A stretch of 64,000 nt of DNA from Vicinamibacterales bacterium (GCA_963782595.1 CAWAKJ010000005.1:149595-213594); one strand, 5' to 3'. Positions 29,648 through 64,000 are shown, counted from the first letter of the stretch. Notes: a model not told the origin generated them from the sequence alone. Made by a program: numbers and translations.

Positions 29648-32289
29648 AGTGGGTCTCGCAGGCGCTTGCCGTTGCCGCGGCGCTCGTCGTGGTGAGTCCC
29701 GCGTCAGCGCAGCAGCCACGCGAGACGCGCATGCTCATCACGGTGATCGATCAGACGAACGCGATCATTCCTGACGCGACGGTCACGGTGACGGGGACGG
29801 AGCCGGCCACGCAGAAACTCGAGCCGGCGCCCGTCAAGACAGCGCCGAACGGCCAGGCGGCCATCGGCGGCCTGACTCCGGGGCGCTATACGGCGCGTGC
29901 GGAGTTCCAGGGGTTCTATCCGGGTGTGTTGAAAGAGGTTCGGCTCCGGCCGGGCGACAACCGGCACATCATCGTGCTGCTCGTCGAAAATTTCCAGGAG
30001 ACCGTGGAGGTCAAGCAGGACGCCCAAGCGGGCGCCGCCGATCGCCGCAGCGATGCCTTCGGCTCGGTGCTCACACGAGAGCAGATGGATGCGTTGTCTG
30101 ACGACCCGGATGAGATGCAGCGGCAGTTGATGGATATGGCCGGCCCCGGCGCGGTGATGCGGATCGACAGCTTCGAGGGAGGACGCCTGCCGCCGAAGTC
30201 ACAGATCAAGTCGATTCGCGTGACGCGCGACCAGTTCGCCGCCGAGAACCACAGCGCCGACTCATTTTTCGTCGAGGTCATTACGCAGCCCGGCATCGGG
30301 CCGATTCGAACCGGCTTCAACTACGGTCTGCGCAACAGCGCGATGAGCGCGCGCAACGCGTTTCACACGACCAAAGGCGAGGAACAGGACCAGTACTACG
30401 GTTTGAACATCGGCGGCGGCCTCATCCAGAACAAGGCGTCGTTCTTCCTCCGGGTGTTCGGCAACTCGGCGTACGACACGCCGAACTCGAGCATCGCGCG
30501 CTCGACAGGTACGCGCATCGAAACGCTCAAGCAGCGGGTGCCCCGCGAGAACATGTTCGTCAACGGCAACTTCGACTGGGCCGTGACGCGCGACCAGACG
30601 CTCAGGTTCAGCTACAACCGCAACGCGTTCGTGAACAAGAACCAGGGTATCGGTGGATACGACGAGCCAGAGCGCGCGTTCCTGTTGAAGAACTACACGA
30701 ACACATTCCGCGCCCAGGAAGTGGGGCCGCTGGGCCGCCGCTTCTTCATCAATACACGGTTGAATGTGGGGTGGAGCGATTCGGAGCGCACGTCCAGCGT
30801 AGAGGCGCCGACCGTGCGCATCATCGACGCCCAGACCTTCGGCGGTGCCCAGAAGGCCGGCGGGCGGCATTCGCGCGACGTCAATTTCGCGAGCGACCTC
30901 GACTACGTCCGCGGCATGCATTCACTGCGGGTAGGAGCGGCCATCGACGTCAACTGGTTCAGGTCGGACGAATCCGACAACTACCTGGGAACCTACACGT
31001 TCGAGAACGTCGCCGCGTTTGACGCGGAACGCCCGCGTAGCTACACCCGCCGCGTTGGTGTGCCCCAGGTCGATTATTCCAACGTACAGACCGCGCTGTA
31101 TGTGCAGGACGACATTCGAATCAGGAAGAGTCTGTCGGTGACGCCAGGCGTGCGCCTCGAAAAGCAGGCGCACATGCACGGGCTGACCGTCGGGCCGCGG
31201 CTCGGTGCCACGTGGGCGCCGTTCGCGAACGGCAAGACGACACTGCGGGCGAGCTGGGGGATTTTCTACGACTGGCTGCAGACCAACACCTACGAGCAGA
31301 CGATTCGCATCGACGGCTCCCAGCAGCGCGAGATCAATATCGCGAACCCGACCTACCCGGTGCCACCGATCGACCTGGATGGCACGGCACCCGCAGATCG
31401 CTACCTGCTCGGTTCAAATCTCGAGCACCCGAAAAACTCCCGCGTCAGTGGGGGCGTCGACTACGTGTTCTCTCCGCGGTATCGGGTGAACGCGACATAT
31501 CGCTATGTGCGCGGCGCGGGATTGTTCCGCGGCCTCAACCTGAACGCGCCGGAGAACGGGATTCGGCCGAACTCGAAATTCGGCAACGTCGTCCAGGTCG
31601 TTAGCGACGGCGCGCTGCGACAGCACGTGTGGAACTTTGGCGGTCAGACCAATTTCCCACAGGAATTGGGGAGGGCGGCGCGCAAGTGGGACTTCAGACG
31701 CTTCAATTTCTTCGGCAACTACTTTCTGGCGTCGAGCGAAAACAACACCGACGGCCCGTTCAGCGTGCCGGCCACGGGCGATCTCGACCTGGAGTGGGGG
31801 AATGCGGCCCAACACGCCAGGCATCGCTTCAACGGCGGGTTCCTTACCCAGGCATACAGAGATCTGTCGGTGCAGGTGAACGTCAACGGCAATCTCGGCA
31901 CAGCCTACGGTATTCAGACGGGTTTCGACAGTAACGGAGACCTGATCTTCAACGACAGACCTGCCAGCGTGTCCAGGAACACGCTGGTGACCGATCCGAA
32001 CTGGATGCTGAACATGTTCGTCGGCTATGCGTTTACCTTCGGTCCCTCGATTCAGCTGCCGCCGGGGATTCAGTTCGGGCCCGGGGCAGGCGGGACGCTC
32101 ACCGTGACGACGGTGACGCGCCCCGATCAGGGCCGTTATCGGATGGCGGTGAACGTGTTCATCAACAACCTGACCAACCGCGCGAATCTGACGGGTTATA
32201 GCGGCGTGGAAACGTCGGAGTTTTACCGACGGCCGACCAGAGCCGACGGTGCGCGACGGATTCAGGTGAGCACGAACCTGACGTTCTAG
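29644..32289 (+). CDS. TonB-dependent-receptor-like outer-membrane barrel with carboxypeptidase-regulatory-like domain
   Basis: Signal peptide, ITVIDQTNAIIPDATVTV...GRYTA module, long barrel, terminal Phe (STNLTF). Confidence 0.75.
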   Translation: MKWVSQALAVAAALVVVSPASAQQPRETRMLITVIDQTNAIIPDATVTVTGTEPATQKLEPAPVKTAPNGQAAIGGLTPGRYTARAEFQGFYPGVLKEVRLRPGDNRHIIVLLVENFQETVEVKQDAQAGAADRRSDAFGSVLTREQMDALSDDPDEMQRQLMDMAGPGAVMRIDSFEGGRLPPKSQIKSIRVTRDQFAAENHSADSFFVEVITQPGIGPIRTGFNYGLRNSAMSARNAFHTTKGEEQDQYYGLNIGGGLIQNKASFFLRVFGNSAYDTPNSSIARSTGTRIETLKQRVPRENMFVNGNFDWAVTRDQTLRFSYNRNAFVNKNQGIGGYDEPERAFLLKNYTNTFRAQEVGPLGRRFFINTRLNVGWSDSERTSSVEAPTVRIIDAQTFGGAQKAGGRHSRDVNFASDLDYVRGMHSLRVGAAIDVNWFRSDESDNYLGTYTFENVAAFDAERPRSYTRRVGVPQVDYSNVQTALYVQDDIRIRKSLSVTPGVRLEKQAHMHGLTVGPRLGATWAPFANGKTTLRASWGIFYDWLQTNTYEQTIRIDGSQQREINIANPTYPVPPIDLDGTAPADRYLLGSNLEHPKNSRVSGGVDYVFSPRYRVNATYRYVRGAGLFRGLNLNAPENGIRPNSKFGNVVQVVSDGALRQHVWNFGGQTNFPQELGRAARKWDFRRFNFFGNYFLASSENNTDGPFSVPATGDLDLEWGNAAQHARHRFNGGFLTQAYRDLSVQVNVNGNLGTAYGIQTGFDSNGDLIFNDRPASVSRNTLVTDPNWMLNMFVGYAFTFGPSIQLPPGIQFGPGAGGTLTVTTVTRPDQGRYRMAVNVFINNLTNRANLTGYSGVETSEFYRRPTRADGARRIQVSTNLTF

Positions 32290-32380
32290 GACACAGAGGC
32301 CACAGAGACAAACGGAGGCCGCAGAGGAATTAGATCAAAATTCTCTGTGCTCTCCGTTCTACTCTGTGCTCTCTGTGTCC
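32289..32380. repeat. 92-bp composite palindrome of the CACAGAG/AACGGAGG family
   Basis: Left arm GGACACAGAGGCCACAGAGACAAACGGAGGCCGCAGAGGAATT. The right arm is its imperfect reverse complement (...CTCTGTGCTCTCTGTGTCC). Lies between convergent genes. Confidence 0.8.
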
Positions 32381-35160: not shown

Positions 35161-36402
35161 GTGTTCGGCTTCTTTCGCGAAGGAAATACCCTGGTCTGCG
35201 ATGGTGTGTCACTCGAGAACGTCGCCCGCGACTACGGCACACCCCTCTACGTGTACAGCGCCGGGGCGATTCGGAAGTCGTACCGCGATCTGGACGAGGC
35301 CTTCGGCTCTCATCCACACCGCATCCACTATGCGCTGAAGGCGAACTCGTCGTTGGCGATCGTCCGGCTGCTGCGGGACGCCGGCAGCGCCGTGGACGCC
35401 AATTCGATTGGCGAGGTCTATCTCGCGATGCGGGCGGGCGTTGCTCCGTCCGACATCGTGTTCAGCGGAGTCGGCAAGTCGCCGGATGAGATTGAGCGGG
35501 CCGTTCCGCTCGGCCTCAAGGCCATCAACGCGGAATCCGCGGGCGAGCTCGAGCGAATCGACCGTGCGGCTCGAGCGCGGGGTGTGCGCGCCCGGGTCGC
35601 GATACGGGTCAATCCCGACATAGACGCGGGCACCCATCCCCACATCTCCACTGGCCTTCACATCAATAAGTTCGGTGTCCCGCTCGAACACGCCGGCGCG
35701 CTGTACCGCAGAATGTCCGAGCAGCCCGGACTGCAGCCGGTCGGCATTCACGTTCATCTTGGCTCGCAGATCATCAGCACAGAGCCGATTCAGCGCGCGG
35801 CGCTCGAAGTGGTGAGGCTCGCGCGGGAGCTGCGTGACGGGGGCATCGAGCTGGAGCACATCGATGTCGGCGGCGGACTTGGCATCTCCTACGACGGTTC
35901 CCGTGTGCCGACCGCGGCCGAATACGCCGCCGCCGTTCTTGCCATCGTGAAGCCATCGGGGCTCGCCGTTGCGCTGGAGCCGGGCAGGGCTATCGTGGGT
36001 GCCGCCGCTGTGCTGCTTGCGCGCGTGGTTGATCTGAAGCCGGCGGCCGCCGGGCACCATTTTGCGGTGCTCGACGCCGGTATGACCGAGCTGATGCGCC
36101 CCGCCCTGTACGGTTCGTTCCACCGCATCGAACCGGTGACGCCGCGCCCCGGGCGCGAGCTTTGCTACGACATCGTCGGGCCCGTATGCGAGAGCACCGA
36201 CATGCTCGGCCACGACCGGCGTCTGCCCCCGCTTGACGTCGGCGACCTCCTCGCCATTCTCGATGCAGGCGCGTATGGATCGGCGATGTCCTCGAACTAC
36301 AACCGGCGGCCGTTGCCAGTCGAGGTCCTGATCGATGCCGGAACAGCGACGTTGATTCGACGCCGGCAGACTATCGAGGATCAGCTGGCGCTGGAAAACT
36401 AG
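35161..36402 (+). CDS. lysA: Diaminopimelate decarboxylase
   Basis: PLP-Lys motif HYALKANS, GTPLYVYS, and the CESTD/ILDAGAYG C-terminal motifs. GTG start. Confidence 0.9.
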   Translation: MFGFFREGNTLVCDGVSLENVARDYGTPLYVYSAGAIRKSYRDLDEAFGSHPHRIHYALKANSSLAIVRLLRDAGSAVDANSIGEVYLAMRAGVAPSDIVFSGVGKSPDEIERAVPLGLKAINAESAGELERIDRAARARGVRARVAIRVNPDIDAGTHPHISTGLHINKFGVPLEHAGALYRRMSEQPGLQPVGIHVHLGSQIISTEPIQRAALEVVRLARELRDGGIELEHIDVGGGLGISYDGSRVPTAAEYAAAVLAIVKPSGLAVALEPGRAIVGAAAVLLARVVDLKPAAAGHHFAVLDAGMTELMRPALYGSFHRIEPVTPRPGRELCYDIVGPVCESTDMLGHDRRLPPLDVGDLLAILDAGAYGSAMSSNYNRRPLPVEVLIDAGTATLIRRRQTIEDQLALEN

Positions 36403-36424
36403 GGATTGGGGATTGGGGATTGGG
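36400..36424 (+). repeat. G-rich heptamer array TAGGGATTGGGGATTGGGGATTGGG
   Basis: Starts with the lysA TAG stop. Four G3-4 tracts separated by ATT. Confidence 0.85.
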
Positions 36425-36427
36425 CGA

Positions 36428-37033
36428 ATGCCGGGGATGCTGATTGCGTTCGAGGGGCTCGACCAGAGCGGCAAGGAAACACAGGCGCAGCAACTGCGCG
36501 AGCGGCTCCGCGAGTCGGGACACAAGGTGCGCCTTCTCTCGTTTCCGGACTACGGGACGTCGATCGGCGAGGAGATCGCGCGCGCATTGCAGGGCGAGCG
36601 CGAGTACGGCGCCGACGTGATGCAGTTGCTGTTTGTGGCCAACCGCCACGAGCGTCGCGAGGCGATTGTCGAATGGATTGCCGGCGGGTTGATTCTGCTG
36701 TGCGATCGCTATCGCGCCTCGAGCATCGCGTATGGCGAGGCACAGGGGCTGGATCCCCTATGGCTGGAAGACATCCAGCGGTTCCTGCCGGCGGCCGACC
36801 TGACCATCTATGTCGACATTGCACCTGAAACGGCAGCGAAGCGCAAAGCCACCGATCGGGACCGTTACGAGCGCGACCTCGCGCTGCTCGGGCGCGTGCG
36901 AGAAAGCTACCGCCATCAGGCGGCACAGCCGGACTGGGTGCTGATAGACGGAGAGCAGACGAAAGACGCGATCGCGGAACAGGTGCTCGCCGCTGTGGTC
37001 GAGCGGCTGGCCAGCAGCCCCACCAGGGGTTAG
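36428..37033 (+). CDS. tmk: Thymidylate kinase
   Basis: FEGLDQSGKETQ P-loop and the CDRYRASSIAYG motif. ATG at 36428 or 36437. Confidence 0.9.
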   Translation: MPGMLIAFEGLDQSGKETQAQQLRERLRESGHKVRLLSFPDYGTSIGEEIARALQGEREYGADVMQLLFVANRHERREAIVEWIAGGLILLCDRYRASSIAYGEAQGLDPLWLEDIQRFLPAADLTIYVDIAPETAAKRKATDRDRYERDLALLGRVRESYRHQAAQPDWVLIDGEQTKDAIAEQVLAAVVERLASSPTRG

Positions 37034-37057
37034 GCCTGCTCGGGGATGAGGCCGCTC

Positions 37058-37088
37058 AGGGATTAGCGACTAGGGACTAGGGATTGGG
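37058..37088 (+). repeat. G-rich heptamer array AGGGATTAGCGACTAGGGACTAGGGATTGGG
   Basis: Lies between tmk and comF. Contains the comF stop and its last codons on the opposite strand. Confidence 0.8.
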
Positions 37089-37878
37089 AACGCCGCTTTG
37101 TGATGACCCGTGCGGCGGTGAGCGCGAAGACGTCTGACGCGCCGGATTCTTTCAGCACGCGAGCGCACGATTCCAGCGTCGCACCCGTTGTGCTGACATC
37201 GTCTATCAGCAGCACCTTCATGCCCCGTACGCTCGCCTTGCCCAACCAATCCCGCCGGAGACCAAACGCATCAGCGACGTTGGCCTGACGTCGGTCTGCC
37301 GCCAATTCCACTTGCGCTCGTGTATGGCGCCGACGAGCCAGTGCGTGGACGACAGGAAGACCGAGATGCCGGGCGAGCTCGCGGGCCTGATTGAATCCTC
37401 GAGAGTATTCCCGGCGCCGGTGAAGAGGGACAGGCACGACGCAATCCGCCGCGGTCAACAACTCCGCACCACGCACACGCATCAGCGCGGCGAGTGGTTT
37501 TGCCAGCGAGCGGCGGCCGCTGTACTTCAGCGCGTGAATAATCTCTCTCAGCGTGCCGTCGTACTCGCCGATGGCGCGCGCCCGATCGACTGTGGCCCGA
37601 TGCTGGAGACAGAGCGCGCACAGGGATTGAGGATTAGGGAGTGGGGATTGGGGCTGTCGTGCGAGCGGGTCGCCGCAGACGTCGCAGACCGGCGGTGTGA
37701 TCGGCCGGATCGAGGCCCAGCAGGCGCCGCACACGCAGCCGGACAGCGGCTCTGCAAGGATGCTTCCGCACACGGCGCAGCCTGGCGCAAGGACGGCTGT
37801 GGCCAGCGCGTTGGCAGCGAACCGCAGTCCAGGGATTAGGGATTGGGGACTAGGGATTAGAACTGTCACGCGTGTCAT
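37063..37878 (-). CDS. comF: ComF-family phosphoribosyltransferase-domain protein
   Basis: N-terminal CxxC pairs (CAVCGS, CDVCGD, CALC) and the PRT motif VLLIDDVSTTGATL. Both ends and one internal segment are repeat-derived. Confidence 0.8.
   Translation of the reverse strand: MTRVTVLIPSPQSLIPGLRFAANALATAVLAPGCAVCGSILAEPLSGCVCGACWASIRPITPPVCDVCGDPLARQPQSPLPNPQSLCALCLQHRATVDRARAIGEYDGTLREIIHALKYSGRRSLAKPLAALMRVRGAELLTAADCVVPVPLHRRREYSRGFNQARELARHLGLPVVHALARRRHTRAQVELAADRRQANVADAFGLRRDWLGKASVRGMKVLLIDDVSTTGATLESCARVLKESGASDVFALTAARVITKRRSQSLVPSR
37622..37653 (+). repeat. G-rich heptamer array inside comF
   Basis: AGGGATTGAGGATTAGGGAGTGGGGATTGGGG is read in frame on the minus strand as QPQSPLPNPQSL. 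Confidence 0.8.
37831..37860 (+). repeat. G-rich heptamer array AGGGATTAGGGATTGGGGACTAGGGATTAG
   Basis: Encodes the comF N-terminal LIPSPQSLIP. Lies immediately downstream of the four-helix-bundle gene. Confidence 0.85.
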
Positions 37879-38261
37879 GCCCCTGCGCGCCCGTGGTGAT
37901 CCCGCGCCTCTAGTGATTCGACAAGGCCGTGCAACATGTTTCCGATTGGATCGATGTATTGCATTCCCTTCATGAGGAGCGGTCCAGGGACGAGCTTTCG
38001 CCGCCGGATCAATTCGAAGAGCGTTTCAACCTCTCGATGGGAACCCAGCGAGTAGGAGAGATGATTTAGATACGCCTTCGTCGGGCGGCGACTTCCTTCC
38101 GCGATGTTGGAAGGGATTGAAATGCCGGCCGGTATCAGTTGGTCGGCAAAGGTGAATCGGTAAGGATGCGGAATGGCCTCGACGATGTCGAAACACACCT
38201 CGGCCAGATCCATGCTGGTTTGCCAAACGACGAGATCTTTGAAGGAGTTAATTTGCGTCAT
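37875..38261 (-). CDS. Four-helix-bundle protein (23S rRNA intervening-sequence protein family)
   Basis: FKDLVVWQ...IPSNIAEG...YL..S.GS..E family pattern. Lower GC than its neighbours. The stop overlaps the comF start (ATGA). Confidence 0.8.
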   Translation of the reverse strand: MTQINSFKDLVVWQTSMDLAEVCFDIVEAIPHPYRFTFADQLIPAGISIPSNIAEGSRRPTKAYLNHLSYSLGSHREVETLFELIRRRKLVPGPLLMKGMQYIDPIGNMLHGLVESLEARDHHGRAGA

Positions 38262-38298
38262 GCAGCTTGAGGGGCAAGCTGCGTGCCGTCGAAAAATC

Positions 38299-38320
38299 AG
38301 GGATTGTGATTAAGGATTGG
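38299..38320 (+). repeat. Degenerate G-rich heptamer array AGGGATTGTGATTAAGGATTGG
   Basis: Upstream of the four-helix-bundle gene. Confidence 0.6.
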
Positions 38321-38396
38321 TGAGTAGTGCAGAAACTGCCGCGCTGCGGGGTGCGACGGATCGCAGAAAACGAAAAACGCGCGCCTCGGCTGAACG

Positions 38397-38424
38397 AATC
38401 CCTTATCCCCAAACCCTAGTCCCT
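38397..38424 (-). repeat. G-rich heptamer array in inverted orientation (AATCCCTTATCCCCAAACCCTAGTCCCT on + strand)
   Basis: The only copy that is C-rich on the + strand. Contains the rsfS stop codon. Confidence 0.75.
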
Positions 38425-38817
38425 GGAGTGGGTGTGAGGCGGCGCAGGTTCAGGCACCTCTATCCGGTCCGCCGAGCCCCATAGTCGTTCGAGCGAATAA
38501 AAGGCTCGTGTGTCCGGGCTGAAGATGTGCACGATGAAGTCGAAGTAGTCGAGCAGAATCCAACCGGCGCGGTCGCCCCCTTCGATATGTGCGGGCTTGA
38601 CGCCTTTCGAACTCAGTGACTCCTGAATGGCGTCGGAAATGGCCTGGATCTGCCGCGTGTTCTGGCCGGTCATGATGACGAAGTAGTCCGTGAAGCCTTC
38701 AGCCGGGCGGAGATCGAGCACGACAACGTCGGCGGCCTTGCGATCGTGCGCCGCGTCGATGGCGCGCTGGACCTGTGCGGGGAACTTCGTCGATGGCCGT
38801 TTGCGTGGAGGAGTCAC
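38416..38817 (-). CDS. rsfS: Ribosome silencing factor
   Basis: DVVVLDLRPAEGFTDYFVIMTGQNTRQ...WILLDYFDFIVHIF...YSLERLW (iojap/RsfS pattern). Confidence 0.9.
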   Translation of the reverse strand: MTPPRKRPSTKFPAQVQRAIDAAHDRKAADVVVLDLRPAEGFTDYFVIMTGQNTRQIQAISDAIQESLSSKGVKPAHIEGGDRAGWILLDYFDFIVHIFSPDTRAFYSLERLWGSADRIEVPEPAPPHTHSRD

Positions 38818-39461
38818 AACACCGCCGCTATGGGCGCCGGCACGTACAGGTGATGTCGGCGGATATGGCCGGCGACGCTTGGCGGCACGAGACCGTCGAT
38901 CGACTCGCCGGCGCCGACGCGGCGACGGATCTCCGTGGCCGAGACGTCGGGTGTGATCGCCTCCACCGAAAACACCGTCGGCGCAGTCGGATTGACTGCA
39001 GGGATTAGGGATTGGGGATGAGGGATGAGTTCAGACACGCGCGGCGCGCCTGGGCGCGAGACGACCACGAAGTTCGCGAGGCTCATGATTCGCGGATAGT
39101 CGTACCACGTGGCCACCTCGGCGAAGGCATCGCTGCCCGTGACGAAATAGAGCTCCGACGACGAAAACCCTTCGCGGTGCAGCGCTTCGAGCGTCAACGC
39201 GGTGTACGAGGGCCCCTCGCGTCGCAGCTCGAGATCGGAAACAGCCATGTCGTAGTCCGCACCGGCCAGGGCGGCCATCGCGAACCGATGAAACGCAGAT
39301 GCGCGAGGCTCGGTGCTGCGATGCGGCGGCGTGCGCGCAGGCAGAAGCAGAACACGATCGAGCGACAGCACGCGCCGAGCCGCAGATGCGGCTTCGAGAT
39401 GGCCGAGATGGATAGGATCGAACGTGCCGCCGAGAATCCCGACGCGCAGGTGAGGGCTCAT
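38814..39461 (-). CDS. nadD: Nicotinate-nucleotide adenylyltransferase
   Basis: GILGGTFDPIHLGHL motif and the late SATEIRRR motif. Overlaps rsfS and obg by 4 nt each. Confidence 0.9.
   Translation of the reverse strand: MSPHLRVGILGGTFDPIHLGHLEAASAARRVLSLDRVLLLPARTPPHRSTEPRASAFHRFAMAALAGADYDMAVSDLELRREGPSYTALTLEALHREGFSSSELYFVTGSDAFAEVATWYDYPRIMSLANFVVVSRPGAPRVSELIPHPQSLIPAVNPTAPTVFSVEAITPDVSATEIRRRVGAGESIDGLVPPSVAGHIRRHHLYVPAPIAAVL
39000..39030 (+). repeat. G-rich heptamer array inside nadD
   Basis: AGGGATTAGGGATTGGGGATGAGGGATGAG is read in frame on the minus strand as LIPHPQSLIP. Confidence 0.8.
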
Positions 39462-40552
39462 TTTTTCTGATCTCGGCGCGCTCCCCCGCGCCGAGCAACC
39501 ACCGCCGGTGCGTCTGCGCGAGGCTGGTCTTCGGCGCCTTCAGGCTGGCTGAGATACTTCCAGACAGCCTCCTGCAGCGTGTCGAGCCCCTGGCCCGTGA
39601 CCGCGGAAATCCGGACGAAGGGAAGGTCGTGCGACCTCACGTGCGCCTCGAGGGCATCGACGGCCGACGGCTCGGTCACCGTGTCCATCTTTGTTGCCGC
39701 CACGATCTGCGGCTTCGACGCAAGCTCGTCGTTGAAGTGCGAAAGCTCGCGCTGGATCGTGTCGAAATCTTCCACCGGATCCCTGCCCGAGGCGCCCGAC
39801 ACGTCCACGAGGTGGATCAGCACCTTCGTGCGATCGAGATGCTTCAGAAAGCGATCGCCCAGTCCTCGGCCTTCGTGGGCGCCCGCGATGAGCCCAGGCA
39901 CGTCGGCGACGACGAAGCTGCGATTTCCGGTGAGGGAGACGACACCAAGATTCGGTATCAGCGTCGTGAACGGGTAGTCGGCGATCTTGGGTCTTGCGGC
40001 GGAAATCCGCGAAATCAGCGTCGATTTCCCTGCGTTCGGAAACCCCACGAGGCCCACGTCGGCCAGAAGCTTGAGCTGCAGCTGCAGCTGCTTGGTTTCC
40101 CCTGGTGTGCCTTCCTCGAACCGCCGCGGTGCCCGGTTGGTCGAGCTGACGAAGCGCGCGTTACCCCGTCCGCCGATGCCGCCCTTCGCGAGCAGCACGC
40201 GCTGTCCGGATTCGACGAGATCGCCCATGAGAATCGGGTCGTCGCCGGGCTCCGCCGGCTTCTCGTAGATCAGCGTGCCGACCGGTACTTCCAGTTCGAG
40301 GTCGTCCGCGTTACGGCCCGTGCGGTTCGAGCCTTCGCCGTGCCCGCCGCGTCTGGCGTGGAACTCGCGATTGAAGCGATAGGAAATGAGCGTATTGAGA
40401 TGGGGACTGGCAACGGCGTAGACCGATCCGCCCTTGCCTCCGTCGCCGCCGTCGGGGCCGCCCCGAGGAACGAACTTCTCGCGCCGGAAGCTGAGGCTGC
40501 CGGCGCCGCCGGCACCGGACTCTACGAGGATGTCGACTTCGTCGACGAACAT
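39458..40552 (-). CDS. obg: GTPase Obg/CgtA
   Basis: MFVDEVDI...GGPDGGDGGKGGSVY Obg fold. G domain has GFPNAGKST and DVPGLI. Confidence 0.95.
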   Translation of the reverse strand: MFVDEVDILVESGAGGAGSLSFRREKFVPRGGPDGGDGGKGGSVYAVASPHLNTLISYRFNREFHARRGGHGEGSNRTGRNADDLELEVPVGTLIYEKPAEPGDDPILMGDLVESGQRVLLAKGGIGGRGNARFVSSTNRAPRRFEEGTPGETKQLQLQLKLLADVGLVGFPNAGKSTLISRISAARPKIADYPFTTLIPNLGVVSLTGNRSFVVADVPGLIAGAHEGRGLGDRFLKHLDRTKVLIHLVDVSGASGRDPVEDFDTIQRELSHFNDELASKPQIVAATKMDTVTEPSAVDALEAHVRSHDLPFVRISAVTGQGLDTLQEAVWKYLSQPEGAEDQPRADAPAVVARRGGARRDQKK

Positions 40553-40563
40553 GGGAGTTGGCT

Positions 40564-40636
40564 GAATCTGAAACTAAAATCTGAAAACTAGAATCTGGAA
40601 TCTCCCAGATTCTAGATTATAGATTTTAGATTCTAG
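40564..40636. repeat. AT-rich heptamer array (GAATCTG/AAATCTG) with inverted partner
   Basis: Direct units lie on the left and AGATTCT/AGATTTT units on the right. Central 9-bp stem AGAATCTGG (40590-40598) / CCAGATTCT (40605-40613). Confidence 0.8.
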
Positions 40637-40644
40637 TTCCAGCT

Positions 40645-40902
40645 TCACTCGACTGGCAGCACGCTGATTTTGCGGCCACGGGCGCCGTGGTCTTCAAACC
40701 GTACACGGCCGGCGACTTTGGCAAACAGCGTGTCGTCTTTCCCGAGTCCGACGTTGATGCCGGGCTGGAACCGGCGTCCACGCTGACGGACCAGGATGGA
40801 TCCGCCCGAGACGATGTTGCCGTCGTGCCGCTTGACGCCCAGCCGCTGCGAATTGCTGTCGCGGCCGTTGCGTGAGCTGCCTTGTCCTTTTTTATGAGCC
40901 AT
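40645..40902 (-). CDS. rpmA: 50S ribosomal protein L27
   Basis: [25 protein letters not shown]. Confidence 0.95.
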
Positions 40903-40910
40903 GGGTGGTG

Positions 40911-40958
40911 GTGAAAGTAAAAAGTAAAAAGTGAAACGTAGAAGTAAAAAGTAAGAGG
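40911..40958. repeat. A-rich tandem array (AGTAAAA/AGTGAAA units)
   Basis: GTGAAAGTAAAAAGTAAAAAGTGAAACGTAGAAGTAAAAAGTAAGAGG fills the entire rplU-rpmA spacer. Confidence 0.8.
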
Positions 40959-41273
40959 TCAGCCCACGATGTCCGTAATCCGGACACGCGTGAAGAACGC
41001 GCGGTGGCCGGCCTGTTTGCGGAAGCCCTTGCGGCGCTTCTTCTTGAACACGCGCACCTTCGGGCCTCGGGCCTCGCCGTCGACGACGCCGAGCACCTTG
41101 ACGCCGCTCACGAAGGGGGCGCCGGCGGTGATTTCGCCGCCGTCCCGCGCGAGAAACAGAACCTCCTCGAAGGTCACCTCTTTACCAGCCTCGGCAGCCT
41201 TTCCGTCGAGCTCGACGGTGGCACCCGGCGTAACCTTGACCTGACGACCCCCGGCTTGAATGATGGCGTACAC
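40959..41273 (-). CDS. rplU: 50S ribosomal protein L21
   Basis: [14 protein letters not shown].... Confidence 0.95.
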
Positions 41274-41357
41274 GGACAGTCCTCCTGCAGAAAGAACTTA
41301 AAAGTATAGCACAGAGCCGTTTACTGGGCAGGGATGAGGGGGTGAGCCTCAACGAAC

Positions 41358-42140
41358 CTATTTGATGAGCACCCTCGATCCGCGGACACGCTGTGTGCTC
41401 AACGTGCTGAGGAAGCGCGGAATGATCTCGTCCATCAGCTCGAAATAGGACGACAGCGCCGGGGTGTTGTCGTTCTGGTTGTACAGCCGCTCCTCGCGCA
41501 GTGCCTCGGAGTAGATCTGTGCGCCCGAACGGCCGTCGATAAAGATGAACTTCTCCTGCAGGATGAAGCCTTTGCGCTCCATGTATTCACGTACCGGCTC
41601 AATGTAGCGGCGCCCGAGCCGATCGAAGACCTCGCGCTCGCGTTGCACCATCCCCGACTGCGAATGTGGCGTGAAGAGGACCGTGCCGGTCACGATGAGA
41701 GGGTTCTGATATTCCTCGCCGATCCGCTTCCAGTAATCGGCGTCGGCGAAGATGTGCTCGTACGGCTGGAGATCCTTTTCGTTCTTGATCGCGGTCTGCT
41801 CGTCGGTCTGCGCCGCCGGCTCTGCGGCGGGCCCCGCGGCCTGTCCTTCGGGCCCGCGGCCCGCGGCGACCTCCATCAGCGGCAGCACGTCGGCGTCGAT
41901 GACACGAAGGCTCGATTTCATCCGGAGCTGGCTGCGCAGCAGCCGGACCGTCTCGAGATTGCCGTCCACATCGTCTGTCCCACCGGAGATGAACCCGGCA
42001 ATGAAGACGCGCTGGAATGCCGACACGTCGAGCTTGGCCGCGATCGGCGTCTCGATCGGAATCTCGTAAAAGCTGGCGCAACCAACCACGCCCACGGCGA
42101 GCACGCAGCTAAGGAGTTTGAGACTGATTCGTCCGGTCAT
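41358..42140 (-). CDS. Hypothetical lipoprotein
   Basis: MTGRISLKLLSCVLAVGVVGC lipobox-like signal. Start set at ATG 42140, because the longer ORF to 42410 is out-of-frame overlap with the TPR gene. Confidence 0.55.
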   Translation of the reverse strand: MTGRISLKLLSCVLAVGVVGCASFYEIPIETPIAAKLDVSAFQRVFIAGFISGGTDDVDGNLETVRLLRSQLRMKSSLRVIDADVLPLMEVAAGRGPEGQAAGPAAEPAAQTDEQTAIKNEKDLQPYEHIFADADYWKRIGEEYQNPLIVTGTVLFTPHSQSGMVQREREVFDRLGRRYIEPVREYMERKGFILQEKFIFIDGRSGAQIYSEALREERLYNQNDNTPALSSYFELMDEIIPRFLSTLSTQRVRGSRVLIK

Positions 42141-42462
42141 GGATTTCCTTGAACAGCTCGAAATTCTGCCGCACCAGAGCGTTATCGGGCTCCAGCTTGA
42201 GCGCCCGCTCATAGGCTTCTGCCGCCTTGTCGAGCATGCCCTCGTGTTCGTAGGCGACCGCCAGATTGTTGAACCCGGCCGCATAGGTCGGATCGATCTG
42301 GGTGGCCCGCTCCCATCGGTAGATGGCTTCCTTCCACAGGCCGCGCTGCGCCACAGAGATCCCGAATTCCACCTGCGCTTTTGCGTCCGACCGCGCATCG
42401 GCGTATGCAACGCCGGCGAAGGCCGTCAAAAGCACCACAACGGAGAAGACACGCATTGGCAT
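42109..42462 (-). CDS. Secreted TPR-repeat protein
   Basis: Signal peptide MPMRVFSVVVLLTAFAGVAYA. TPR consensus (AIYRWERATQIDPTYAAGFNNLAVAYE..., AYERALKLEPDN). Confidence 0.7.
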   Translation of the reverse strand: MPMRVFSVVVLLTAFAGVAYADARSDAKAQVEFGISVAQRGLWKEAIYRWERATQIDPTYAAGFNNLAVAYEHEGMLDKAAEAYERALKLEPDNALVRQNFELFKEIHDRTNQSQTP

Positions 42463-42525
42463 AGAGACAATCCCAACTATAGCAGGGCCGGCCCCAAGGG
42501 GTAAGCGGAAAGCGGACACTCCAGC

Positions 42526-42572
42526 GGTTGGGGATTGGGGATTAGGGATTGGGGACTGGGGGTTGGGGATTA
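42526..42572 (+). repeat. Longest G-rich heptamer array (six G4-5 tracts)
   Basis: GGTTGGGGATTGGGGATTAGGGATTGGGGACTGGGGGTTGGGGATTA lies in the divergent spacer between the TPR gene and dprA. Confidence 0.85.
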
Positions 42573-42623: not shown

Positions 42624-43544
42624 GTGAGTACCAACATTATTGCAATATCGGCGGGCGACGTTCGGTATCCCACTGCGCTTGCCGCCATCTACGATCCTCC
42701 AGCCGTCCTCTGGGTAAGAGGCCATCTCGACGGGCTGCGCGCGCCGGCCGTGGCCATTGTCGGGTCGCGCCGGGCCTCGCCGTACGGTCTGGAAGTGGCG
42801 AGACGGCTCGGCGCCGATCTCGCGCGCCGGCACGTGACGATTGTCAGCGGCATGGCGCGCGGCATCGATTCGGCCGCGCATCGCGGCGCCCTGGAAGCCG
42901 ACGGCGTCACGGTCGCCGTGTTCGGCTGCGGCGTCGACGTCATCTACCCGCCCGAACACCGCGCGCTCGCCGATCGCATCTGCGAGCGCGGCGCCCTTGT
43001 CAGCGAGTGCGATCCCGGCATGCCTCCTTTGAAGTCCAACTTTCCGCGCAGAAATCGCATCATCTCCGGGCTCTCGCTGGCGGTCGTCATCGTCGAGGCG
43101 GCCGAAAAGAGCGGTTCGCTCATCACGGCGGACTGTGCGCTCGAGCAGGGGCGCGCCGTACTGGCGGTGCCGGGCAACGTCCTCGGAGGCCGCAACTTCG
43201 GGGCGCACGCGCTTCTGCGCGATGGTGCAAAGCTGGTCGAGTGTGCGGACGATATCTTGGAGGAGATCTCTCCAGGATTGACACGGCCGGGAGCCGGAAG
43301 CCGGCAGCCGCAGGGCGATGGCGATGAACCCGCGAGCCGCACAAACGCGTCTCAGGATGCAGTGCTGCTGTCGATGGTCGAGGGCGATTCGTACGATCTC
43401 GACGAGATCTCCGAGCGCTCGGGAGTCGATCGCGTGAAGTTGCTGCCGCGGTTGCTCGAGCTGGAGCTTGCGGGTGCGCTGCGCCGTGTCGAAGGCGGCC
43501 GATTCGTGCGGTTTCGCGGTCCTTCGGCGCCGTTCGTTCCGTGA
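42624..43544 (+). CDS. dprA: DNA-processing protein DprA (Smf)
   Basis: AIVGSRRASPYG, GMARGIDSAAHRGAL and SGSLITA motifs. GTG 42624 follows AGGAG. Confidence 0.85.
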   Translation: MSTNIIAISAGDVRYPTALAAIYDPPAVLWVRGHLDGLRAPAVAIVGSRRASPYGLEVARRLGADLARRHVTIVSGMARGIDSAAHRGALEADGVTVAVFGCGVDVIYPPEHRALADRICERGALVSECDPGMPPLKSNFPRRNRIISGLSLAVVIVEAAEKSGSLITADCALEQGRAVLAVPGNVLGGRNFGAHALLRDGAKLVECADDILEEISPGLTRPGAGSRQPQGDGDEPASRTNASQDAVLLSMVEGDSYDLDEISERSGVDRVKLLPRLLELELAGALRRVEGGRFVRFRGPSAPFVP

Positions 43545-46103: not shown

Positions 46104-46168
46104 GATCGTCCATCGTCCATCGTCTGGAGATCCACGTCATTGCCATCTGCCATTTGCCCTCTGCCCTG
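46104..46168. repeat. CATCGTC x3 array followed by a CATCTGC-type array (inverted GGCAGAT family)
   Basis: GATCGTCCATCGTCCATCGTC (46104-46124) and CATTGCCATCTGCCATTTGCCCTCTGCCCTG (46138-46168), directly upstream of trmFO. Confidence 0.8.
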
Positions 46169-46170
46169 AC

Positions 46171-47607
46171 ATGATTCATGTAATTGGCGGCGGTCTAGCC
46201 GGTTGTGAGGCTGCGTGGCAAGCGGCATCGCGCGGTGTTCCCGTCACCATCCACGAAATGCGGCCCGTGCGTCCGACCGAGGTGCACAAGACCGATCGGC
46301 TCGCCGAGCTCGTCTGCAGCAATTCGTTCCGCGGCGACAAGCTGGACAACGCCGTCGGCCTTCTGAAAGAGGAAATGCGCCGGCTCGACTCGCTCGTGAT
46401 GCGCGCCGCCGAAACCGCGCGCGTGCCGGCGGGCGCCGCGCTGGCCGTCGATCGCGACCTGTTCGCCCGATCCGTCACGCGGGCGATCCACGAGCATCCG
46501 CTCATCACGCTCGCGCGCGAAGAGGTCACCGCGATTCCAGTCGCTTCGCGCGAGTCGCCAGTGATCATCGCGACCGGGCCACTGACGTCGCCCGCCCTCT
46601 CCGCCGCTGTGGTGCACCTGGTCGGCAACGACCATCTGTATTTCTACGATGCGATTAGTCCGATCGTGCTCGCAGAGACCATCGACATGAAGGTGGTCTT
46701 CCGCGCCTCGCGTTGGAATCGGAACGTTCGTCCCAAGCCCGGGATTGGTTCTGAGCCGCTGAACGCGCCCAAGACGTGCGGAATAGACGATGGTGAAGGG
46801 GACTATCTGAACTGCCCGATGACGGCGGACGAATATCGGGCGTTTTACGCGGCCCTCTCGACGGCCGAATCGGCGACCGTCCATGATTTCGACAAAGAGA
46901 AGTTCTTCGAGGGCTGCCTGCCGATCGAAGTGATGGCGCATCGCGGCGAAGACACGCTGCGATTCGGGCCCATGAAGCCGGTGGGGTTGACCGATCCGAG
47001 AACGGGCCGCCAGCCATACGCCGCCGTTCAGCTGCGTCAGGACAACCTGGCCGGCGATCACTACAGCCTGGTGGGATTTCAGACGCAGCTGAAGTGGGGA
47101 GAGCAGGCGCGCGTGCTGCGCATGATTCCGGGTCTCGAGCAGGCCGAGTTCGTGCGGTTCGGCATGGTCCATCGCAACACGTACATCAACGGGCCGACGG
47201 TGCTGCACGAGACGTGGCAGACGCGTGCGAACCCGTCGTTGTTCTTCGCGGGCCAGATCTCCGGTGTTGAGGGCTATGTGGAATCTGCGGCATCCGGCCT
47301 GATCGCCGGAAGAAACGCGGCGGCACTGGCGCGGGGCGAGGCACTTTGCGTACCACCACGTACGACCGCCATCGGCGCGCTCGCCTTCTACGTGTCGCAC
47401 GCCAATCCGCACGGCTACCAGCCGACGAACATCACCTTCGGCATTATGGAGCCGCCCCCGGCCGGCATCCGCGACAAGCAAAAGAGGAAGCTGTCGATTT
47501 CCGAGCGTGCCCTCGCGGACCTGGATGCTTGGAAGGAGGCGGAAAGCGGACGGGATAGGGCAGATGGCAGATGGCAGAAGGCAAAGGACGGAGCGCAGAC
47601 GGCATGA
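46171..47607 (+). CDS. trmFO: Methylenetetrahydrofolate--tRNA-(uracil-5-)-methyltransferase
   Basis: VIGGGLAGCEAAWQ FAD motif and LVCSNSFR. The C-terminal ~16 aa (ADGRWQKAKDGAQTA) are encoded by the repeat. Confidence 0.95.
   Translation: MIHVIGGGLAGCEAAWQAASRGVPVTIHEMRPVRPTEVHKTDRLAELVCSNSFRGDKLDNAVGLLKEEMRRLDSLVMRAAETARVPAGAALAVDRDLFARSVTRAIHEHPLITLAREEVTAIPVASRESPVIIATGPLTSPALSAAVVHLVGNDHLYFYDAISPIVLAETIDMKVVFRASRWNRNVRPKPGIGSEPLNAPKTCGIDDGEGDYLNCPMTADEYRAFYAALSTAESATVHDFDKEKFFEGCLPIEVMAHRGEDTLRFGPMKPVGLTDPRTGRQPYAAVQLRQDNLAGDHYSLVGFQTQLKWGEQARVLRMIPGLEQAEFVRFGMVHRNTYINGPTVLHETWQTRANPSLFFAGQISGVEGYVESAASGLIAGRNAAALARGEALCVPPRTTAIGALAFYVSHANPHGYQPTNITFGIMEPPPAGIRDKQKRKLSISERALADLDAWKEAESGRDRADGRWQKAKDGAQTA
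47558..47587 (+). repeat. GGCAGAT heptamer array at the trmFO 3' end
   Basis: GGGCAGATGGCAGATGGCAGAAGGCAAAGG, inverted relative to 46138-46168. Confidence 0.85.
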
Positions 47608-48536
47608 GGGAGACGCTCAGAGACTTCCTTCAACATCTCCGGCGGCGCGACGTTTCACCGCATACGCTCGCGGCGTATGAAAACGACGTGTCCACGTTTC
47701 TCCGGCACACGGCGCACCTCAGGCAACGGCAGGTCGACGCGCTGACCCCATCGGACGTCGACGCGTTTGCGATCCGCGCGTTTCTCGGCGAGCTGCACAA
47801 GCAGCGCCTGTCCGCGTCCTCGTCTGCGCGAAAGCTCTCGGCGATTCATACCTTCGTGAAGTTTCTGCGGCGCGAGGATTTGATCGAAAACGATCCCGCC
47901 GCGCTCGTCGCGGCGCCGAAGAAGCCCGAGACGATCCCGGCTCATCTGACAGTGGACGAAATGAGCCGACTGCTCGAGATGCCGGACTGTTCGAGTCCCC
48001 TGGGTCGCCGCGATCGCGCCATCCTGGAGCTGTTCTACGCGTCGGGTCTTCGCCTCAGCGAGCTCGTCGGTCTTGACATGGAGGATGTGAACCTGTCGGG
48101 ACGGATGGTGCGCGTGATGGGGAAGGGTCGGAGAGAGCGGCTCGTGCCCTTCAACAGCGCGACAGCTGACGCTCTTCGCGCGTGCATGAAGGATCGAAGC
48201 CTGTCAGGGCAGATGGCAGATGGCAGAGGGCAGACCAAGCGAGGACGTGGTGGCGTGCAGGCGCCGCTGTTTCTCAACTACCGCGGCGGGCGACTGTCCG
48301 CGCGCAGCGTCGATCGTCTGGTGCGTCGCTACGTCGCCGAGTGCGGCGCGAAGTTCGGCATCAGCCCGCACGCATTGCGGCATTCATTCGCCACACACCT
48401 GCTTGCCAATGGGGCAGACCTTCGAGCCATTCAGGAGCTGCTCGGGCACGCCCGCCTCAGCACGACCCAGCGCTACACGCACGTCAACGCGAAACAGCTG
48501 ATCGACGTCTACAAGAAGTCGCACCCCCGCGCGTAG
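47604..48536 (+). CDS. xerC: Tyrosine recombinase XerC/XerD family
   Basis: HALRHSFATHLL and ARLSTTQRYTHV (catalytic Tyr). ATG overlaps the trmFO stop (ATGA). Whether it is xerC or xerD cannot be resolved. Confidence 0.85.
   Translation: MRETLRDFLQHLRRRDVSPHTLAAYENDVSTFLRHTAHLRQRQVDALTPSDVDAFAIRAFLGELHKQRLSASSSARKLSAIHTFVKFLRREDLIENDPAALVAAPKKPETIPAHLTVDEMSRLLEMPDCSSPLGRRDRAILELFYASGLRLSELVGLDMEDVNLSGRMVRVMGKGRRERLVPFNSATADALRACMKDRSLSGQMADGRGQTKRGRGGVQAPLFLNYRGGRLSARSVDRLVRRYVAECGAKFGISPHALRHSFATHLLANGADLRAIQELLGHARLSTTQRYTHVNAKQLIDVYKKSHPRA
48207..48234 (+). repeat. GGCAGAT heptamer array inside xerC
   Basis: GGGCAGATGGCAGATGGCAGAGGGCAGA is read in frame as GQMADGRGQ. Confidence 0.85.
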
Positions 48537-49565: not shown

Positions 49566-49674
49566 GGGCGACCCGCCTTCGCGCTGCGCGCTACGGCGCG
49601 GCAGGCGGAATGCGCGGTCGCCCGACCAGACTGTCAACTGACTGTCGACTTTCGACTTGCGACTGTCGACTTGC
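49566..49674. repeat. Long GC hairpin followed by a GACTGTC/GACTTGC heptamer array
   Basis: GGGCGACC (49566-49573) pairs with GGTCGCCC (49616-49623). Six heptamers occupy 49629-49674. Lies between convergent genes. Confidence 0.75.
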
Positions 49675-54533: not shown

Positions 54534-54553
54534 CTAGGGGGATTGGGGATTAG
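54534..54553 (+). repeat. Short G-rich heptamer array CTAGGGGGATTGGGGATTAG
   Basis: Lies between the ABC-F start and the response-regulator stop, and contains that stop. Confidence 0.7.
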
Positions 54554-63486: not shown

Positions 63487-63504
63487 CACGAACGGGCGGA
63501 CGTA

Positions 63505-63617
63505 GGACACAGAGGCCACAGAGGTCGGCTTCGCACCCCCGAGAGCACAGAGAACTCTTTTTTCTTTTGACATGAAATACTCCGTGCCCTCCGTTTTTCT
63601 CTGTGTCCTCTGTGTCC
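63505..63617. repeat. Third copy of the CACAGAG/AACGGAGG composite palindrome
   Basis: Left arm GGACACAGAGGCCACAGAGG (63505-63524). Right arm ...CCCTCCGTTTTTCTCTGTGTCCTCTGTGTCC ends at 63617. Confidence 0.8.
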
Positions 63618-64000
63618 TGAGCACGATCGCGTGCGGGCGGAAAGGGCCGCCGCTTGCGCCGATCGTGTATCTGCCACGGCCGGTCGCCGATCTCGCGGCG
63701 AAGCGAGTCGAGAACGAAGTCGTCCTTCAATTCACCGTTCCGACGGTGAACACAGATGGATCGGGTCCCGCAGATCTCCGCCGCATGGAGGTGTACGCCC
63801 ATACCGGACCGCTGCCGGCGCCCGCCGATTTCCTGAAATACGGAACGCTGGTGTCGTCGATCGACATCGAGGAGCCGCCAGAACCGAAACCGGCAGGGGA
63901 GCAGGAGGCCGAAACGGTTCGCGTCACGGAGCCAGGTGCTGAGGACCCCGCGCAGCAGGTTGCGCAGGCGGTCCCGGCGAAGAGTGGCCTGAAGGGGCTG
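63572..64000 (+). CDS. Putative lipoprotein, 3' end beyond window
   Basis: The frame is open from ATG 63572 to the window end. MKYSVPSVFLCVLCVLSTIAC is followed by GRKGPPLAP. Not in the ORF track because no stop lies in the window. The signal peptide is encoded by the repeat arm. Confidence 0.5.
   Translation, partial: MKYSVPSVFLCVLCVLSTIACGRKGPPLAPIVYLPRPVADLAAKRVENEVVLQFTVPTVNTDGSGPADLRRMEVYAHTGPLPAPADFLKYGTLVSSIDIEEPPEPKPAGEQEAETVRVTEPGAEDPAQQVAQAVPAKSGLKGL

Follow-up and report, generated by a model that had tools for sequence, protein, structure and literature searches.

Why does a bacterial chromosome carry a cluster of short G-rich tandem arrays, nearly all in one orientation, around a single small gene? 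The question is raised by a 64-kb stretch of DNA, hereafter the window, from a Vicinamibacterales bacterium (Acidobacteriota; GCA_963782595.1, CAWAKJ010000005.1:149595-213594). It contains nine (GGGATTN)n arrays, here named A to I, of which eight are G-rich on the + strand. An earlier sequence-only reading had described them as telomere-like arrays with quadruplex potential and a strand bias. Re-location of A to I bore out both their places and the count of eight out of nine, but that account overlooked a wider population of heptamer arrays and, at the centre of the cluster, a gene of the PF05635 family. As first described, the locus is a member, in a new phylum, of a published repeat class whose quadruplex chemistry has already been measured. 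What the present analysis adds is a variant that we did not find described: an intervening-sequence-like element, consisting of a PF05635 gene with heptamer-array arms, inside mRNA operons. We give roughly an even chance to our favoured explanation, that the arrays belong to a class of G-rich heptamer repeats and here form the arms of such an element in an mRNA operon.

Complementary arrays bracket a PF05635 gene between rsfS and comF

The gene at the centre of the cluster (37875-38261, - strand) was identified by Pfam (PF05635, E 8e-21) and NCBIfam as encoding a 23S rRNA intervening-sequence/four-helix-bundle protein (TIGR02436). Its product matches PDB 2GSC (XCC0516; E 5e-11) and is identical to a protein on record (P0001). 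Seven of the nine arrays lie within 1.5 kb of this gene, with a probability under uniform placement of about 4e-8 for a test that was chosen after seeing the data. On the gene strand, the G-rich array F is 5' and the C-rich array D is 3' of the gene, forming an inverted pair that brackets it. In the predicted fold of the 611-nt transcript, F pairs with D as a long stem around the open reading frame (ORF) in both the minimum-energy and the centroid structure (z -5.85). A strong hairpin between E and F was considered and rejected, as that pairing is weak (z -1.05) and F pairs with D instead. The PF05635 element sits between rsfS and comF and not in an rRNA gene. Homologues that are 74-89% identical occupy the same rsfS-comF site in related genomes, with the same arrays; among the loci first compared, a tblastn search for PF05635 matched only the window and the syntenic locus L002.

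The units of the nine arrays are the 7-base tandem repeats GGGATTA, GGGATTG and GGGACTA. The arrays have 2.7-6.3 units, are 19-47 nt long, and are all internal, with genes on both sides. A two-unit pattern, GGGRNTDGGGRNTD, has 19 matches in the window, all on the + strand, against 0.07 expected from dinucleotide shuffles. The arrays are:

Array A, 36402-36424, + strand: (GGGATTG)3GGG; its first base is the last base of the stop codon TAG (36400-36402) of a lysA-like gene, and it ends 6 nt 5' of the tmk ATG
Array B, 37058-37090, + strand: encodes the comF C-terminus SQSLVPSR* and holds the comF stop codon (37063-37065); one inversion breakpoint of the related locus L203
Array C, 37622-37656, + strand: within comF, in place of the loop between two zinc-ribbon CxxC pairs; reads QPQSPLPNPQSL
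Array D, 37831-37860, + strand: C-rich on the gene strand, directly 3' of the PF05635 gene; comF residues VLIPSPQSLIPG; 3' arm of the cassette stem
Array E, 38299-38330, + strand: degenerate (G4Hunter 0.8); located in the PF05635 leader, 5' of the gene, where it makes a close but weak inverted pair with F
Array F, 38396-38425, - strand: C-rich on the + strand and G-rich on the gene strand; the stop codon of rsfS (38416-38418) falls within it; the cassette stem's 5' arm, and the other inversion breakpoint of L203
Array G, 39000-39030, + strand: within nadD, in a variable surface loop after the VVVSRPG motif; reads ELIPHPQSLIPA
Array H, 42528-42572, + strand: 6.3 units, in the divergent spacer between a tetratricopeptide repeat (TPR) lipoprotein gene and dprA
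Array I, 54534-54552, + strand: 2.7 units; holds a response-regulator stop codon and ends 6 nt before the start of an ABC-F gene

The genes around them, in order, are:

lysA-like gene, ending at 36402, + strand
tmk, 36431-37033, + strand
comF, 37063-37878, - strand
PF05635 gene, 37875-38261, - strand: its stop codon overlaps the comF start codon
rsfS, nadD, obg, rpmA, rplU and two lipoprotein-like genes, next after the PF05635 gene, - strand
dprA, topA, trmFO and a xerC-like gene, after the minus-strand block, + strand

All genes from comF through the TPR lipoprotein gene (37063-42459) are on the - strand, in agreement with the earlier statement that every gene in the 37-42.6 kb block has this orientation.

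The same bracket surrounds PF05635 genes in other lineages

A G-rich arm 5' and a C-rich arm 3' of PF05635 genes were also found in Planctomycetota, Gemmatimonadota, Cyanobacteriota and Bacteroidota, and an array on one side only in Xanthomonas. With the window, six phyla and many different units are represented. Where PF05635 genes were picked by homology, 16 of 17 loci had complementary flanking arrays of constant polarity.

In a Thermoguttaceae locus (L115), the order is hom, G-array, PF05635 gene, C-array, apgM. Homologues of the L115 protein, collected by sequence similarity alone, gave a Planctomycetota sample of nine loci (among L204-L208 and L210-L215). All nine have the arrangement upstream gene, (AGGGATT)4-8, PF05635 gene, with or without (TAGGGAT)3-4 and a second gene, (AATCCCT)4-15, downstream gene. 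The second gene encodes an HNH, T5orf172/MUG113, PD-(D/E)XK-like or unknown protein. PADLOC had no model or match for the PF05635 protein and gave only weak generic nuclease matches for the HNH partner. The Planctomycetota cassettes occupy five sites (pheS-pheT, hom-apgM, gatC-gatA, ntrC-mutL and DUF58-batA), and by our own count about 2 of 9 cassette-free spacers in the same loci contain any array. All of the cassettes use the GGGATTA family, although their loci also contain heptamers of other families. A profile search of the collected loci found one more PF05635 gene (L193), between (GAAGAGT)4 and (CTCTTCA)7, a non-quadruplex family.

A sample of eight plasmid and megaplasmid loci (L216-L223) was picked by tblastn alone. 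The PF05635 genes in plasmid records came mainly from heterocystous cyanobacteria, together with Riemerella and Gemmatirosa. Seven of the eight loci had complementary flanking arrays with the G-rich arm upstream:

Calothrix: AGGGTGT upstream, CTACACC downstream; after an integrase gene
Nostoc edaphicum: AGTAGGG upstream, TCCCTAC downstream; between nrdB and nrdA
Nostoc punctiforme: GGGTGTG upstream, ACACCCT downstream; after an integrase gene
Anabaena sp. 90: long GGTGACAGGGAACAG-type array upstream, CTGTCAC downstream; between cas6 and cas4
Geminocystis: AAAAGGG upstream, CTTTTCC downstream; between parA and parB
Riemerella: GGTTTAA upstream, TAAACCT downstream; after an iron-sulfur cluster assembly accessory gene
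Gemmatirosa: GAGGGCAG then CTGCCCTC upstream, CTCCTGCC downstream; site not annotated

The Gemmatirosa repeats have a period of 8, and their order of G-array, C-array, gene and C-array is the window order F, E, gene, D. The Xanthomonas array, from X. campestris, is repeat no. 15 of Rehm et al. 2015 (PMC4692102); it follows accB (bccP, XCC0517) at a distance of 6 nt and overlaps the region where XCC0516, the PF05635 protein of PDB 2GSC, starts.

The polarity of the bracket extends to arrays that have no gene between them. Close pairs of the G family in the metagenome loci are arranged G-then-C in 16 cases and C-then-G in none, and among 38 close inverted heptamer pairs with many different units, G outnumbers C in the 5' arm of 32 and C outnumbers G in that of 2. 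The polarity is real, as an inverted pair gives the same reading whichever strand is taken. It matches that of the PF05635 brackets and is consistent with the gene-free hairpins being related to the cassettes.

The PF05635 family has been described as encoded in rRNA intervening sequences and as having no known function (PMC10053308; bioRxiv 10.1101/2024.02.27.582315). A limited literature search found no mention of a link between PF05635 and such repeats, which is not proof that the link is new.

Heptamer arrays of many units occupy the window and change between relatives

To count period-7 repeats, we used Tandem Repeats Finder with arrays of at least 2.8 copies, and took the expectation from second-order Markov simulations. 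The window contains 15 period-7 arrays against 0.57 expected, a 26-fold excess, while period 8 gave 1 against 0.55. The G-rich arrays are a subset of the 15; other units are AATCTGA/AGATTCT, AAAGTAA, GGCAGAT, GACTGTC and GGTTCTT. Further sites that bear on the comparison with relatives, including array remnants in dprA and trmFO, are:

dprA linker array, about 43270-43310, + strand: (GCCGGAA)n
trmFO remnant, about 46741-46755, + strand: GGGATTGGTTCTGAG, inside trmFO
Inverted pair (AATCTGA)n then (AGATTCT)n, 40565-40636: rpmA-obg spacer, a near-perfect hairpin (-39 kcal/mol, z -7.3)
(GGCAGAT)n, 47559-47583, + strand: trmFO/xerC junction, read in frame at the trmFO C-terminus and the xerC start
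(GGCAGAT)n, 48208-48234, + strand: within xerC, read in frame as SGQMADGRGQT
Complement of (GGCAGAT)n, 46141-46165: topA-trmFO spacer

Comparison of nadD with species genomes puts the window in Vicinamibacterales, Acidobacteriota. By whole-region alignment with MAFFT, the window was compared with four syntenic loci, two of which (L001 and L002) share about 80% nucleotide identity with it and two (L003 and L004) about 73%. L001 and L002 equal the window in heptamer-array richness; such arrays are also plentiful in several further Acidobacteriota loci and in a few from other phyla, and most loci have none. At shared sites, the repeat unit differs from one relative to another:

lysA-tmk spacer: (GGGATTG)3 in the window; (AGATTCT)n in L001 and L002; none in L003 and L004
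dprA linker: (GCCGGAA)n in the window; (GGGATTG)4 in L001; (AGGGCTG)n in L002; degenerate (GGGATYG)n in L003; none in L004
topA-trmFO spacer: ATCGTCC and TGCCATC arrays in the window; a different unit in L001 and L002; none in L003 and L004
trmFO internal site: remnant in the window; (GGGATTG)4 in L001; (GGGGATC)3 in L002; another unit in L003; (AGGGGCA)n in L004

The rpmA-obg hairpin uses an AATCTGA unit in the window and AAAAGTG in L003, with arms that are complementary in both. Array H is found in the window only and is absent from L001-L004, which makes it a recent gain. The internal comF array (C) measures 32 nt in the window, more than that in L001 and far more in L002. The nadD array is restricted to the window, L001 and L002, and in L001 it has an extra nested insert that keeps the frame. 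This insert (L001 10433-10505) is a 73-nt GC-rich sequence with inverted-repeat ends that adds about 22 residues, and no second copy was found among the sequences collected for analysis.

Arrays also coincide with a rearrangement. In a related Vicinamibacterales locus (L203, 2745-4240), a 1.3-kb comF-PF05635 segment is inverted relative to window 37058-38424. The blastn breakpoints fall inside arrays B (37058-37085) and F (38397-38424), which have 11 and 7 units in L203. Arrays B and F, which are in inverted orientation, thus mark the ends of an inversion in the related genome.

Several further features were recorded in these loci. The comF matches of L002 (11637-12493) are spread over three frames, as in a pseudogene or through long-read indel errors near long arrays. 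A vapB/vapC (PIN) toxin-antitoxin pair lies between comF and tmk in some relatives (L001 12369-12940, L202 4272-4843) and is absent from the window. At the xerC array site, the units in L001-L003 differ from the GGCAGAT of the window. A (GGTTCTN)n array of about 7.7 units (window 18957-19011) encodes an N-terminal hydrophobic segment, MSKRFLVLGSAVLGFWFLVLGS..., probably a signal peptide, of a pyrroloquinoline quinone (PQQ)-dependent dehydrogenase. Intergenic hairpins with a 9-base unit, (GGMCACAGA)n then (TCTCTGTGY)n, occur at 32288-32377 (-56 kcal/mol, z -8.0) and 63504-63618 (-50, z -4.2), and represent a second family of repeat-built palindromes in the window. An Rfam scan of the whole window found no known RNA family, and a GC-rich element at 49567-49632 had no second copy among the sequences collected for analysis.

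An element with fixed ends, resembling a miniature inverted-repeat transposable element (MITE) or a hairpin of repetitive extragenic palindromic sequences (REPIN), was also considered. The left boundary seen in the window, CA followed by GGGATT, fails across 96 arrays, and a search of the same 96 arrays for conserved termini and target-site duplications found only an enriched A at position -1, itself part of the repeat unit.

These observations bear on a second explanation, in which the arrays are functionless, microsatellite-like heptamers produced by slippage that favours a 7-base period and tolerated where they are harmless, with the PF05635 gene inserted into an existing hairpin spacer. 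We regard it as possible, if rather unlikely. It accounts for an excess of period 7 that spans many unrelated units, for the turnover of units at fixed sites, for G-rich and non-G arrays of the same size distribution, and for the lack of conserved termini and the many arrays with no PF05635 gene nearby; polymerase slippage is an idea cited by Rehm et al. (PMC4692102). Independent slippage does not, however, predict the strict polarity of the inverted pairs (16:0 and 32:2), and it is further opposed by arms that stay complementary while the unit changes, by the complementary arrays of constant polarity at 16 of 17 homology-picked PF05635 loci, and by Planctomycetota cassettes drawn from the GGGATTA family alone.

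Quadruplex potential, orientation and likeness to telomeres

The strict quadruplex motif (four tracts of at least three G with spacers of 1-7 nt) occurs on the + strand at 36402-36424, 37832-37855, 39001-39024 and 42530-42568, and on the - strand at 38400-38423, within array F. These five are all that the 64 kb contains, each is within an array, and about two are expected by chance. The four arrays listed by the sequence-only reading as satisfying the motif are therefore all present, and the list lacked the fifth, on the - strand. With the quadruplex term of ViennaRNA, arrays A, C, D, G and H fold as quadruplexes, and B, E, F and I do not. The proposed quadruplex potential is well founded, since (GGGATTG)3GGG, (GGGGATT)4 and (GGGGACT)4 have been found by circular dichroism (CD) and melting to be K+-dependent quadruplexes with T1/2 above 74 °C (Rehm et al. 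2015; PMC4692102), and array A is identical in sequence to the first of these oligonucleotides, for which the biophysical check suggested with the sequence-only reading has thus already been carried out.

Array size does not single out G-rich units. For the 173 arrays with a GGG/CCC run in the unit and the 159 without one alike, the number of units has its mode at 4 and its median at 4.3, and half of the arrays are no longer than 30 nt (the median length). The four-unit mode is thus no evidence for selection of quadruplexes, because the non-G heptamers share the distribution, and we discarded it as such a sign.

The strand bias that had been claimed appears to be local. Among 76 arrays sampled from independent high-GC metagenomic contigs, 32 have the G-rich strand as the coding strand and 27 as the template strand. 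These divide into co-directional spacers (27 coding, 19 template) and arrays inside genes (5 and 8), with a further 10 in convergent and 7 in divergent spacers. The arrays thus show no general bias relative to transcription, and no strand bias was reported in the genomes of Rehm et al. (PMC4692102). Arrays in dprA and trmFO, which are + strand genes, have in L001 and L002 the same absolute orientation as the window arrays, and the bias of eight out of nine is therefore local or tied to the replication strand. The + strand of the window has a positive cumulative GC skew, and the replication origin lies outside the window.

The quadruplex view implied by the sequence-only reading, that these are quadruplex elements kept on the template or replication strand to regulate transcription or replication, has in its favour the five arrays predicted to fold, the in vitro folding of identical oligonucleotides, the shared orientation of eight arrays together with the positive skew, and GGG runs in most upstream arms of the PF05635 cassettes. 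We nonetheless think it improbable. Non-G heptamer arrays have the same size, location and inverted-pair layout, same-site arrays shift to units unable to form quadruplexes, and arrays B, E and I are themselves unable to form a three-tetrad quadruplex. The 76 metagenomic arrays lack a transcription bias, and in Xanthomonas and Nostoc neither a strand or replication bias nor a regulatory role was found (PMC4692102). In the intervening-sequence-like element that we favour, folding of the G-rich arm as a quadruplex is possible, but the layout does not require it.

The term telomere-like holds for the sequence of the unit, GGGGATT being the telomere repeat, (CCCCAAT)n, of the rumen ciliate Entodinium caudatum (PMC6211341). 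It does not hold for the arrangement: instead of a long terminal array on a linear replicon, the window has arrays of 3-6 units that are internal and flanked by genes on both sides. An origin as telomere relics or telomerase-like products has next to no probability. The arrays sit within the operons and coding sequence of a bacterium and run in both orientations, their layout recurs with many other heptamer units, and no reverse transcriptase gene was found among the Pfam-scanned gene products. Position and context effectively refute it.

The 18-mer metagenome scan also returned contigs of 1-4 kb with 17-33% GC, several of them from rumen (L100, L103, L112, L117, L119, L122, L125, L130, L134, L172 and L174). 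Several of them, L172 and L130 included, are capped by (CCCCAAT)n 5' and (GGGGATT)n 3', and L172 is a single-gene ciliate nanochromosome with this heptamer as its telomere repeat. A different group of metagenomic contigs with 45-55% GC (L081, L083, L095, L107, L108, L142, L162, L168 and L181; one from human gut) is very rich in AGTGACT, CATTTCT, AATGAGA and TAGGGAT, with 12 heptamer arrays in 13 kb in L095.

Arrays lie at permissive sites and write peptides into housekeeping proteins

Four arrays (A, B, F and I) include or touch a stop codon, two (E and H) are in intergenic sequence, and three (C, D and G) are in coding sequence. Genes whose stop codon falls inside an array are the lysA-like gene, comF, rsfS and the response-regulator gene. 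On both strands, units ending in TTA supply a TAG or TAA within 21 nt whatever the frame, so that the cost to a gene of an array at its 3' end is only a few residues. The arrays persist at permissive sites, namely spacers that abut stop and start codons, protein loops and linkers.

The sequence-only reading had noted two arrays read in frame, in comF and nadD. Translation confirmed both peptides but extended the count, as comF has three array-derived segments, VLIPSPQSLIPG near the N-terminus, the internal QPQSPLPNPQSL and the C-terminal SQSLVPSR*, and nadD has one, ELIPHPQSLIPA. Protein alignments placed the comF and nadD segments in the window, L001 and L002 only, where they replace or extend variable loops; they are missing from other Acidobacteriota orthologues, and the suggestion that the PNPQS-type segments are lineage-specific insertions was thereby upheld. 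In the comF and nadD alignments, the coding arrays are in frame in every relative. The arrays do not fit simple sequence repeats of the phase-variation (contingency) type, in which a change of copy number shifts the frame or the promoter spacing of surface or variable genes: the genes that hold them have housekeeping functions, and the frame is kept in all relatives.

Proximity to start codons raises a further alternative, that the arrays affect translation of downstream genes through binding of the array RNA by a protein. Several arrays end 6-13 nt before start codons (A before tmk, I before the ABC-F gene, and the G-arrays before PF05635 genes), and there is a literature precedent (MacGregor 2015; PMC4679880). 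We assign this alternative only a slim chance, as either strand of an array can be the transcribed one, several arrays are in coding sequence or after stop codons, and no candidate regulator was identified.

A proposed intervening-sequence-like element in mRNA operons

Returning to the element bracketed by arrays F and D, we suggest that the arrays would serve as the repeat arms of an element with the architecture of a 23S rRNA intervening sequence, with the PF05635 ORF in the loop and the whole inserted within the rsfS-comF spacer. By analogy with rRNA intervening sequences, the stem would form in the transcript and would probably be cut by a double-strand-specific RNase. The PF05635 protein would be a putative recognition factor for its own heptamer arrays. 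The solo arrays A, C, G, H and I may be derivatives that have spread locally and are kept by replication slippage and recombination.

A broader proposal is more tentative, and on balance we doubt that it will hold in full. In it, PF05635 proteins are the partners of heptamer arrays, and cassettes between inverted pairs of cognate arrays are mobile intervening-sequence-like elements, some with a nuclease gene (HNH, GIY-YIG-like or PD-(D/E)XK), that enter operon spacers in at least six phyla and seed repeats like the short tandemly repeated repetitive (STRR) sequences of cyanobacteria; solo arrays and empty hairpins would be derivatives or landing sites.

Several observations weigh against our favoured explanation. 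In L001, arrays D and F are retained although the PF05635 gene is missing from the interval. An adjacent PF05635 gene is lacking for most heptamer arrays, five of the nine here among them, and the link may cover only some arrays. No pair of empty and filled sites with clean boundaries was found, and the 96 arrays have no conserved termini beyond the repeat unit. In array-rich genomes, any gene inserted into a spacer could end up beside arrays, the control count being small, and the cassette may insert into existing hairpins instead of carrying the arrays. As for the other lineages, L115 and L193 came from the scan for the repeat itself and hence are not independent samples, the arrays on both sides of the gene in the PCC 7120 gamma plasmid (L222) are not complementary, and the Xanthomonas case is one-sided.

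The proposals would join two long-standing puzzles, the origin and role of the excess of heptamers in bacteria and the function of the PF05635 family. PF05635 proteins form a large family that occurs in rRNA intervening sequences and is akin to Avd, the accessory protein of diversity-generating retroelements. If the broader proposal were true, cassettes bearing PF05635 would seed STRR-type repeats, whose origin has been unexplained since 1990. Should the PF05635 link prove passive, the locus would be one more instance, new but ordinary, of a repeat class already published. For annotation, arrays write new peptides into housekeeping proteins, supply stop codons and serve as inverted repeats for chromosomal inversions.

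Comparison with known systems

Cyanobacterial STRRs have been fingerprinting targets for decades. Mazel et al. in 1990 reportedly described STRR1, CCCCA(A/G)T, to which the Nostoc heptamer type corresponds. The closest published counterparts, described by Rehm et al. 2015 (PMC4692102), are the GGGAATC repeats of Xanthomonas and the GGGGA(C/T)T repeats of Nostoc PCC 7120; they are mostly intergenic and within 50 bp of ORF ends, have a mode of four units and often lie over stop codons. That study counted 70-75 convergent inverted pairs in Xanthomonas, found that length and sequence differ between related species at shared sites, and reported no plus/minus or leading/lagging bias in three genomes and no function. 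The window arrays agree with these repeats in having a G3-4 tract with A/T bases in two or more tandem units, perfect or heterogeneous (GGGANTN)n, with the units GGGGATT and GGGGACT identical, in the four-unit mode (173 arrays; the L001 arrays all have 4), in their position near ORF ends with stop-codon overlap, in forming convergent inverted pairs (E/F and F/D in the window), and in same-site variation between relatives. They differ in occurring in new phyla (Acidobacteriota, in Vicinamibacterales, and Planctomycetota), in the larger share read in frame in housekeeping genes, in a locally biased orientation in the window, and in clustering round a PF05635 gene, which PMC4692102 does not mention.

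TAACTGA heptamer direct repeats are known from Beggiatoaceae, Cyanobacteria and Bacteroidetes (MacGregor 2015; PMC4679880). Like the present arrays, they are tandem heptamers of 2-6 copies, mostly intergenic, near start codons and patchily distributed over phyla; they have another unit and are nearly always direct, whereas inverted pairs are common here. REP/REPIN sequences and MITEs (PMC3116915) are likewise short, abundant, mostly intergenic, often able to form hairpins and possible recombination substrates. The arrays, in contrast, consist of varied 7-base units without conserved termini, a target-site duplication, or a gene for a REP-associated tyrosine transposase (RAYT) or other transposase. 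With the ciliate telomere they share an identical 7-base unit, but the ciliate arrays are terminal on linear AT-rich nanochromosomes such as L172, and the window arrays are short and inside a bacterial chromosome.

Intervening sequences of 23S rRNA with a PF05635 ORF are found in Leptospira and Coxiella. The window element resembles them in having an inverted-repeat stem, here predicted, around an ORF of the same family inside a transcribed unit. It differs from them in that its site is the spacer of a protein operon and its arms are tandem heptamer arrays, to which the Planctomycetota cassettes add nuclease genes.

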